The position numbers are program-made. From the IMG/VR virus record IMGVR_UViG_2880378312_000006: DNA of 64,000 nt, one strand, 5' to 3'. The DNA comes from a virus. Lineage: Duplodnaviria > Heunggongvirae > Uroviricota > Caudoviricetes. Every line of letters begins with the position of its first letter. Position 1 is the stretch's first letter. Positions 9,001 through 12,000 of this stretch are shown here, piece by piece.

Positions 9001-12000
9001 GATGGAAACTGTATTGCATGCACTGAAAGCGATGGGAAAAGCCAATTCTGTTGAACTGGCGGCGCGGCTTGATATCAGCCGTGAAGAAGTTCTTAACGAA
9101 CTGTGGGAACTCAAAAAAATGGCGTTGTTGATAAAACGGGTCACACCTGGTTTCTGGCTGTCGAAGGTGAAGCCGGGGTAACCGAAGGGCAGGCACTACA
9201 ACCTGAAGCGCCGGATGTGGTAACCGAAGAGGTCGCTCCAAAAGTTACCGCAGACATGATGGTTGAGTTTATCGGTCAGGATGGTGCTAAAACGTGTGAG
9301 GAACTGGCGGGTAAGTTCGGCGTCAGTACTCGCAAGGTTGCTTCCACGCTGGCGGTGGTAACCGCAACGGGGCGGCTGGCACGCGTTAATCAGAACGGTA
9401 AATTTCGTTACTGCATGTCGGGGGGTAATTTACCAGCAGATCCGAAAGCCGCGCCGGTAACGAAAAATGATGGTAAGGCCTTTCCTCAGCCAGCAGGTGC
9501 TGCGTTACCAGTCCGGGAAGCCGCAACACAGGAAGAAATTAAAACAGAAACTGTGGCGGACATTGTGCAGCCGTTGCCATCGTTTACCGAAACGCAAGCA
9601 GATGAGCTGATTTTTCCGTCCCTGCGCAGGGCAAACCTGGCGCTGCGCAGGGCGAAAAGTGATGTTCAGAAGTGGGAGCGAGTCTGCGCCGCGCTGCGGG
9701 AGCTGAACAAGCACCGGGATATTGTTCGACAGATTACTGATTCTTCCCGCCGTGTTGTATCGGAAAAGTGATAGCCGGAGGCGCTTATGGCGAAACCTTT
9801 TACACACGAACAGCGTGAAGAACTGAAGGCCCGAATTATCGGGCTGGTACGCAAAAATGAACGCATGACGATATCACAACTGGAGAGAGCGACGGGAGCA
9901 GGCTGGCATTCAGTCAGACGTTGCCTTGTGGATGTACTGGCTTGTGGCGATTTATACATGCCCGGTAAATACGGTGTTTTTACATCAGAACAGGTGTATC
10001 GCGTATGGCGTAAGGCAGCGGAGAAAGCAACCGACCAGACATTGATTCGAAAGTTACCAGACGGAGAAATACGCCGCTACGACAGACAACAGAACATAAT
10101 CTGTGGCGAGTGCCGGAAGAGTGAAGTTATGCTGCGTGTACTGGCGTTCTATCAGGGCAATTTTCAGGAGGCGGTACTGTGAGTGAATTAGCTATCAGGC
10201 TTCAATTGTCGCTGGCATTCGCATCAAAGGAGAATGAGATGACCACTTTTACAAAAGAGCAGTTAATCAGTCATGTTAGTGAAAATGTAAAGGCGATGAA
10301 ATTTGCAGTAAAACAGACAGCATTCAAAAATTCTCTCGAGGCAATTGAGTTGGATTTAGCACTGGCCCTTGTTGCTCAGGCTTCGCTGGAAGCAGAGCCC
10401 GTGCTTTATATGAATCGATTTACCGGAAAGACATTCTCACTGGAAGAGCAACCCGGTGCTGATAAGGAACCGGAAATATACGTGCCGCTATATGCTGCCC
10501 CGCCAGACAGCGCCGCCATGCTTCAGGCTGGAAACTTTCGGGAAAAAAAGGGTTCGTCAACCAATAATTTTCGGGAAATCTCGGAAACGTCAACCAACTA
10601 TCCGGTAACTCTGGATGATTGGATAAGCTGTAGTGAGCGAATGCCGGATGATGGTCAGCACGTAATTATTTTATGTGATGGCGCATTCGTTCTTTATGCG
10701 CAATATCGAGACGGTGAGTTTTTTGATGTAGTCCGTAATGGTGATGAATTTTTCGAAACACAGAGCCGCAATGTAACCGACTGGATGCCGCTACCAGAAC
10801 CGCCGCAGGAGGTGCGCCAATGATCTGGCCTGAAGCCTTTGCAATTACAGGCGTTGCTATAGCTATTGATTTTTTAGTATATGTTATTTGTCGGTGGGGG
10901 TAAAAACGTTCGCCGGGATTCACACCAAAGGAGGGAATATGTCGGATGATATTTCACTGGCAATGGAAGGTGCGCTGGCTGTTATTGCTGTTGTGGGCGT
11001 TTACTGCCTGGTTGTGTTTTTGATGGATCGACTAGGGAACTGAATTCATTACGATATGGGAATTCCCATATCGGGTAAAAACGGTTTGCGGTAAAGCGAG
11101 AGTTAAGTAGAATTGCTGCGGGTGCTTGAGGCTGTCTGCCTCGGGCATGCCACCGTAAGGCAGACAGAGAAAAGCCCCAGTTAACATTACGCGTCCTGCA
11201 AGACGCCTAACATTAATCTGAGGCCAATTTCATGCTAGACACATGTAGGTTAGCCTCTTACGCGCCGAAAGGCAAGGAGAAGCAGGCTATGAAGCAGCAA
11301 AAGGCGATGTTAATCGCCCTGATCGTCATCTGTATTACCGTCATAGTGACGGCACTGGTAACGAGGAAAGACCTCTGCGAGGTACGAATCCGAACCGGCC
11401 AGACGGAGGTCGCTGTCTTCACAGCTTACGAACCTGAGGAGTAAGAGACCCGGCGAGGGAGAAATCCCTCGCCACCTCTGATGAATCAGGCATCCTCAAC
11501 GCACCCGCACTTAACCCGCTTCGGCGGGTTTTGTTTTTTCCTGGCATTCTGGTTTACAATTCGCACGCCAGCCTGAACAACTGGCACCTGCTGCGCCAGC
11601 AGAGACAACCGATGGCGCACGATACCAAATTATACAATTCTGATGATTCTGCCGTCTTTGCCAGCAGGCGCGGACGGTGTTTTTACGCATTCAAATCTGA
11701 CTGGTACCAGCATCCCCCATGCACTGAAGAACAGGCCGAATGGCTCATTCAGTGTTACCGCAGGCGCGGATGCGAGGTTAAAAAAGCCCTTAGCCTCGAC
11801 TACCGTCACTGGATAATCTCCGTCAGGCTCCCTTACTCCGAACGGCCACCGCGTCCGTCCCGCACATTCCAGCAACGGATCTGGAGGTAATGTGCGGGTA
11901 TTACTTCGACCTGTTCTGGTACCGGAACTCGGTCTGGTTATCGTTAAGCCAGGCCGTGAATCAATGTCAGCATTCCATAACGGCAGAATACTGGTGGAGC

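Follow-up and report, generated by a model that had tools for sequence, protein, structure and literature searches.

A frameshifted DUF1627/YdaW-family gene in prophage Sp12/CP-933P, very probably a lineage-specific pseudogene of Escherichia coli O157:H7

In this study, a gene of the DUF1627/YdaW family that is divided at a run of seven adenines (A7) was investigated in IMG/VR virus record IMGVR_UViG_2880378312_000006 (Caudoviricetes), the whole 64,000-nucleotide (nt) stretch of which is referred to here as the window. The gene occupies 9002..9771 and, like all the features named below, lies on the plus strand; it was delimited with the aid of the Prokaryotic Genome Annotation Pipeline (PGAP), its orthologs, the Pfam profile PF07789 and the phage family phrog_630. 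Its first open reading frame (ORF1, 9002..9181) starts with ATG, encodes 59 amino acids (aa) and ends with the TAA stop at 9179-9181, while the second (ORF2, 9103..9771) encodes 222 aa in the -1 frame relative to ORF1. The A7 homopolymer, read directly from the sequence, is found at 9113..9119 and is the site of a 1-nt deletion; with the preceding C9112, it supplies the 0-frame heptamer C-AAA-AAA. The frame across the run is CTC AAA AAA ATG, and ORF1 is made up of 39 native residues, in a frame that reads ...ELWELKK up to the run, followed by 20 out-of-frame residues, the native-frame coding being continued in ORF2 from 9120 onward. Insertion of one A into the run yields a fused ORF of 771 nt and 256 aa, in which the ancestral run of eight adenines (A8) is read as the codons AAA AAA AAT (Lys-Lys-Asn). 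A GAGG motif resembling a Shine-Dalgarno (SD) sequence is located at 8988..8991, 10 nt 5' of the native ATG at 9002, and the same start has likewise been chosen in the PGAP and phage annotations. Direct reading of the sequence upstream of the GTG at 9103, where ORF2 begins, showed no SD-like motif; the DUF1627 half in the -1 frame lacks a credible start. Dozens of complete E. coli O157:H7 genomes match the region with 100% identity across 851 nt, and its counterpart in strain Sakai is found inside 'prophage Sp12, lambda-like phage', where position x of the window falls at Sakai 2255081-x and Sp12 takes up approximately window 54-50992; Sp12 of Sakai is the counterpart of CP-933P in strain EDL933 (PMC8630535).

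Both halves of the gene were recognized by profiles of the same family. ORF2 matched Pfam DUF1627 (PF07789) with E=5.8e-100 over its residues 57-211, the entire domain being harbored in ORF2, and phrog_630, a full-length phage family, was matched at its N-terminus by the first 43 residues of ORF1 with E=6.3e-21, so that the two ORFs are real coding sequence and not chance reading frames. After the missing A was restored, the gene scored 331.6 bits against PF07789 (E=7.5e-100), far above the curated cut-off of 28.1, with profile positions 1-155 of 155 covered, and the repaired product aligned with phrog_630 from one end to the other (1-252 of 253 positions, E=1.6e-131). The layout proposed in a preliminary description of this DNA, namely a first ORF that stops soon after the A7 tract, a long ORF in the -1 frame and a fusion of the two by one extra A, is therefore confirmed. 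The same description had called the N-terminus winged-helix-like; several helix-turn-helix (HTH) and winged HTH profiles (HTH_11, DeoR, ArsR/SmtB, MntR) do match residues ~2-57, but all of them fall under their curated cut-offs, and the proposal is weakly supported. A second HTH-like segment was noticed at residues ~85-137 of the intact protein, again with profile matches below the cut-offs. The intact protein is accordingly predicted, from its sequence, to be an HTH-type DNA-binding protein of the DUF1627/YdaW family. With one A restored it matches, over the full length of the profile and with the same gene position, this family of lambdoid prophages, to which E. coli K-12 Rac ydaW, phrog_630 and the intact ortholog WP_000450876.1 belong, and the allele in the window differs from the family in its reading frame, which is broken at codon 40. 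Whereas intact members consist of a single ORF of ~240-260 aa, the A7 allele leaves frames of 59 and 222 aa, and on this ground the gene is classed as a pseudogene member of the family. With reference to the literature, YdaW is counted among the predicted transcription factors of E. coli that have no known function, its length differing between strains (PMC9308461), and in an overexpression screen K-12 ydaW scored as blocking a retron toxin (bioRxiv 10.1101/2020.06.22.160242). Our literature search on the function or expression of ECs2274, ydaW or DUF1627 returned no report on the locus itself and indirect mentions of the family.

Intact versions of the gene carry A8, as the preliminary description had suggested that a homolog alignment might reveal, and they were found in phages, in O55:H7 and in three O157:H7 strains. 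In phages PhiR5_2 and POCJ13, a 771-nt gene is found at the same position, with A8 aligned to the A7 of the window. Each of the 24 phage homologs is one unbroken ORF, 726-771 nt long, as judged from tblastn, by which at least 96% of the protein was aligned in a single piece. The same prophage with the gene intact (WP_000450876.1) was also detected in O55:H7 strain DEC5B and in O157:H7 strains LSU61, PV15-279 and F3113; its neighbors there have the same protein accessions, and the prophage shares 99.75-99.93% identity with the window over 8-12 kilobases (kb). When one A is added, the window is identical to the gene of these four strains at 771 of 771 positions. The missing A is the sole gap relative to DEC5B, PV15-279 and F3113, and LSU61 shows two more single-base gaps near 11.05-11.08 kb.

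To survey the two alleles, an 87-nt probe centered on the run was compared with 5,426 complete E. coli genomes, the serotypes and the non-exact alignments being taken from the 60 listed matches of each probe search, so that samples of the 283 and 164 exactly matching genomes were covered. Exact matches to the A7 probe were obtained from 283 genomes, including Sakai and EDL933, and the 25 of these among the listed matches are all O157:H7, O157 or without a stated serotype; the remaining listed matches (35 of 35) have one extra base in the subject, i.e., A8. The A8 probe matched 164 genomes exactly, including O55:H7, O26, O103 and O121 strains as well as LSU61, PV15-279 and F3113. Among the matches listed, the typical O157:H7 genomes sampled displayed no A7/A8 heterogeneity, and A8 within the same prophage was limited to O55:H7 and the three O157:H7 strains. 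Two of these three are documented as atypical or intermediate lineages, the third being placed by its plasmid: LSU-61 is the recognised intermediate between O55:H7 and O157:H7 (PMC7175801); PV15-279 is a beta-glucuronidase-positive O157:H7 (PMC6256406), and it carries pO157_2, a plasmid also of the beta-glucuronidase-positive strain G5101; and the pO157 plasmid of F3113 clusters with that of PV15-279, apart from all others, in a study whose plasmid and chromosome trees were congruent (PMC10758439). In the genomes sampled, A8/A7 is thus a clean derived character that separates typical O157:H7 from O55:H7 and these three O157:H7 strains.

The 1-nt deletion is a genuine feature of these genomes, with the distribution given above and with the direction A8 to A7, and it is not an error of reading. 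The locus very probably represents a lineage-specific frameshift pseudogene of the DUF1627/YdaW gene of Sp12/CP-933P, the one borne out of the three readings that the preliminary description had left side by side, as it is supported both by A8 in the intact orthologs and by the PGAP label 'frameshifted'. The simplest reading of the sequences would be one A8-to-A7 deletion on the branch to typical O157:H7. The gene of Sp12/CP-933P would at first have been in frame with A8 (Lys-Lys-Asn), and one A would have dropped out, presumably when replication slipped on the homopolymer, after the beta-glucuronidase-positive and intermediate O157:H7 lineages had split off, the A7 allele then being passed on to typical O157:H7. 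From the native start, standard translation would now give the 59-aa peptide, in which the N-terminal HTH-like domain is cut. Since the frameshift falls inside the first HTH-like segment and the remainder is left without a credible start, loss of function may be expected, and it would amount to neutral decay in an already immobile prophage. The frameshift is already known, as the same span in EDL933 is recorded by PGAP/RefSeq as the pseudogene 'DUF1627 domain-containing protein; frameshifted', and it is an ordinary pseudogene. Its significance is small, as it adds one lesion to a cryptic prophage whose immobility was already known. In the original Sakai annotation, by comparison, ORF2 alone was recorded as ECs_2274, a hypothetical protein of 222 aa from GTG, which is best read as the tail of the broken gene.

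Several points weigh against this account. ORF2 has acquired no further disabling mutation; because O157:H7 is so young and clonal, an intact ORF2 says nothing either way, and we count it as uninformative. In E. coli, -1 slippage on C-AAA-AAA, the heptamer present here in the 0 frame, has been documented (PMC1851650), and with such a context 'pseudogene' may not equal zero full-length protein. The basal position of F3113 is inferred from its plasmid, and no single-nucleotide polymorphism (SNP) in 8 kb divides the A7 from the A8 strains, which differ from one another by ~3-6 SNPs; the event is not polarised locally, and a reversion to A8 in F3113 may be the case. Moreover, the evidence on allele distribution draws on the matches listed from the 283 and 164 genomes.

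A homopolymer sequencing or assembly error over a true A8, which the preliminary description had considered, can be given practically no weight. Homopolymer indels are a common type of error, and in the PacBio assembly of EDL933 (NZ_CP008957.1) about a dozen genes are labeled 'frameshifted' in a duplicated morphogenesis block of ~10 kb (segment 13822-23834), labels that could reflect assembly homopolymer errors or real decay; that block is unrelated to the A7 site, which is common to all assemblies. The same A7 allele has been read in 283 independently sequenced complete genomes that come from many laboratories, years and assembly projects, Sakai and EDL933 among them, while A8 was read in related strains of the same sequencing projects, and an error is thereby excluded. 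The idea that the run is a selected switch between a short and a long product, either by programmed recoding or as a slipped-strand contingency locus, is scarcely credible on the present evidence. What can be said for it is generic, namely a homopolymer within a coding region, a context of slippery type and an ORF2 that has stayed open. The split occurs in a single clone, with the ancestral and all other states examined being in frame, and the run itself is not conserved: homologs from Rac-SA53, PPompW, pPE4 and Rac 442/2 read CTGAAAAAGGCT or CTGAAGCGT at this place, with a longest A-run of 4-5, and the A-run is restricted to the N-terminus of the Sp12/PhiR5_2/POCJ13 type. No stimulatory RNA was found either, as 9120-9200 folds with -23.2 kcal/mol, compared with a mean of -22.9 for shuffled sequence (z = -0.10), nor was there an SD-like sequence 10-14 nt upstream of the run, where direct reading gives GAACT at 9098-9102; the host prophage, besides, is immobile and decaying. 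Compared with the programmed -1 pattern X_XXY_YYZ, C-AAA-AAA at 9112-9118 is a non-canonical heptamer with published precedent, in which A-site re-pairing is perfect and P-site re-pairing reaches 2/3, and both a stimulatory element and a conserved two-frame arrangement are missing. Genes that use transcriptional slippage, such as Shigella mxiE and the insertion sequence (IS) elements with 9A/9T runs, have runs of ~9, sometimes 8, and a conserved split ORF, whereas the run here is 7 and the split is not conserved. In a phase-variable locus, the run length varies among close isolates, whereas here 283 genomes share A7 exactly, with A8 in the same prophage restricted, among the matches listed, to O55:H7 and the three O157:H7 strains. 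A selected mechanism is thus very unlikely, and slippage on the A-run as a designed device, in the sense raised by the preliminary description, has found no support from the RNA fold, the non-conserved run or the single-ORF homologs. The possibility that the homologs are natively two separate genes, which would have told against the preliminary description, was also tried and rejected, since 24 of 24 phage homologs are single ORFs and the one family that resembles a separate N-terminal gene is the same frameshift fragment. That family, phrog_16668 of the PHROG database with 59 positions, matches ORF1 from end to end (1-59 of 59, including the out-of-frame tail) with 138 bits, compared with 98.8 bits for the repaired protein; it appears to have been built from the frameshift fragment and should not be taken for a real protein family.

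A different possibility is that the pseudogene is leaky, in that a -1 slip of the ribosome on C-AAA-AAA (9112-9118), or the addition of an A by RNA polymerase, restores the frame by accident and without having evolved for it. Typical O157:H7 would then still make a reduced amount of the DUF1627 protein together with the 59-aa N-terminal peptide; we consider this unlikely, though it has more in its favor than the two alternatives above. The 0-frame register is CT[C AAA AAA] ATG, and after a -1 slip the reading continues with AAT GGC, which gives exactly the wild-type L-K-K-N-G.... Belfield et al. 2007 demonstrated, with sequenced protein, that C-AAA-AAA brings about 25-60% -1 frameshifting in E. 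coli with neither an SD element nor a strong hairpin present, and that such frameshifting rescues 1-nt deletions (PMC1851650). Their case, pDEST17 attB1, has the identical heptamer and register, and in both a -1 slip offsets a 1-nt deletion; it differs in that foreign cDNAs were expressed under T7 overexpression and the product was sequenced, while the slippage here is a prediction for a repressed cryptic prophage. Transcriptional slippage can likewise rescue 1-nt deletions in A-runs, as in human apoB, in which eight As yield approximately 1/10 of the product (PMC1088944). The rates of 25-60% were measured under T7 overexpression in BL21(DE3), and the K-12 genes hold 333 in-frame C-AAA-AAA sites, 81% of expectation (PMC1851650); with so many native sites and such an expression setting, native rates are probably low. 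Slippage of a single tRNA on A-AAA amounts to 0.3-1%, as cited in PMC1851650, and transcriptional slippage is seen to be selected against at runs of ~9 in many bacterial genomes (PMC1088944), compared with 7 here. The absence of unusual downstream RNA structure and of an SD-like element 10-14 nt upstream also speaks against efficient slippage, and no expression data on the locus were found in the literature search. By this analysis, a trace of full-length product from the A7 allele is likely, whereas a substantial amount would be improbable, and slightly less probable still would be that at least 5-10% of ribosomes slip -1 on C-AAA-AAA and so restore the exact wild-type DUF1627 protein. If such slippage did occur, it would be a natural 'savior frameshift' that down-tunes a predicted prophage DNA-binding protein instead of abolishing it, with a new 59-aa peptide made besides, and an instance from nature in which a slippery site present by chance makes good a deletion.

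What is likely to be a true programmed -1 frameshift, similar in type to lambda G/GT, was observed elsewhere in the window, at 30995-31674, with its heptamer at 31360-31366. The tail assembly chaperone ORF (30995-31369) ends with AGA AAA AAG TAG, containing the canonical A-AAA-AAG, and the ORF of protein T (31393-31674) is in the -1 frame, which has no stop from the heptamer on. Both this site and the split DUF1627 gene have an A-rich slippery sequence joining ORFs in the 0 and -1 frames. Unlike the DUF1627 split, which belongs to one bacterial clone with an in-frame ancestor, the G/GT site has a canonical heptamer immediately ahead of the upstream ORF's stop, in an arrangement that is conserved across tailed phages. 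The longest homopolymers of the window are a G10 at 14540-14549, between the last tRNA-Arg and a TerB-family ORF (14603-15064), and a T9 at 31702-31710, between protein T and the tape-measure gene (31727-34969), and no ORF matching an annotated gene spans either run.

The gene is situated in the replication module of the lambdoid prophage, in which the order is repressor/Cro-like, YdaT-like, O-like replication protein, DnaC-type loader, DUF1627 gene and DUF977/LygF. The upstream neighbor (8236..8976) encodes a DnaC-type helicase loader, an IstB-like ATPase (Pfam IstB_IS21, E=2.7e-19), and the downstream neighbor (9787..10182) encodes a DUF977, LygF or 'Ren-like exclusion' protein (Pfam DUF977, E=9.4e-73). 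The order of DnaC-type (ydaV-like) loader, DUF1627 gene and DUF977/LygF is common to the window, PhiR5_2, POCJ13, Rac-SA53, Rac 442/2 and Sp12 of both Sakai and EDL933; PPompW and pPE4 also have a replication protein upstream of the homolog, but another gene downstream. In Sakai, the integrase, repressor, recombination and several morphogenesis functions of Sp12 are disrupted, and the prophage is neither excised, replicated nor packaged (PMC2669165); its integrase is recorded by PGAP as frameshifted and truncated. The A7 split is a further small lesion of the same kind in the same prophage as that described in the defective O157:H7 prophage pool of Asadulghani et al. 2009 (PMC2669165), the text of which does not mention the DUF1627 gene (the word 'frameshift' occurs 0 times), ECs2274 then being a 222-aa hypothetical protein. 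In O55:H7 DEC5B, the prophage has internal stops in the DnaC-like loader (5164-5904 of the extracted region), the Q antiterminator (10239-10928) and a TerB-family gene (11565-11993); as its DUF1627 gene is kept intact while these other genes are stopped, the same prophage decays independently in each lineage.

Other observations concern the strain and the remaining content of the window. Differences from Sakai and EDL933 were detected at 5311, 7729, 8824, 12494 and 12497, which indicates that the window comes from another O157:H7 strain, and those at 7729, 8824, 12494 and 12497 are found in the window only among the seven sequences compared. The immunity region (~5500-6500) harbors a RelB/ParE-type toxin-antitoxin, which has been studied in CP-933P as paaR2-paaA2-parE2 (PMC8630535), and a hokD/mokC type I toxin gene is found at ~11200-11450, downstream of the replication module. 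Three tRNA genes are located at 14210-14459, downstream of the Q antiterminator, with anticodons CAT, Arg-TCG and Arg-TCT, and the one with the CAT anticodon is assigned to Met by ARAGORN and to tRNA-Ile by PGAP.

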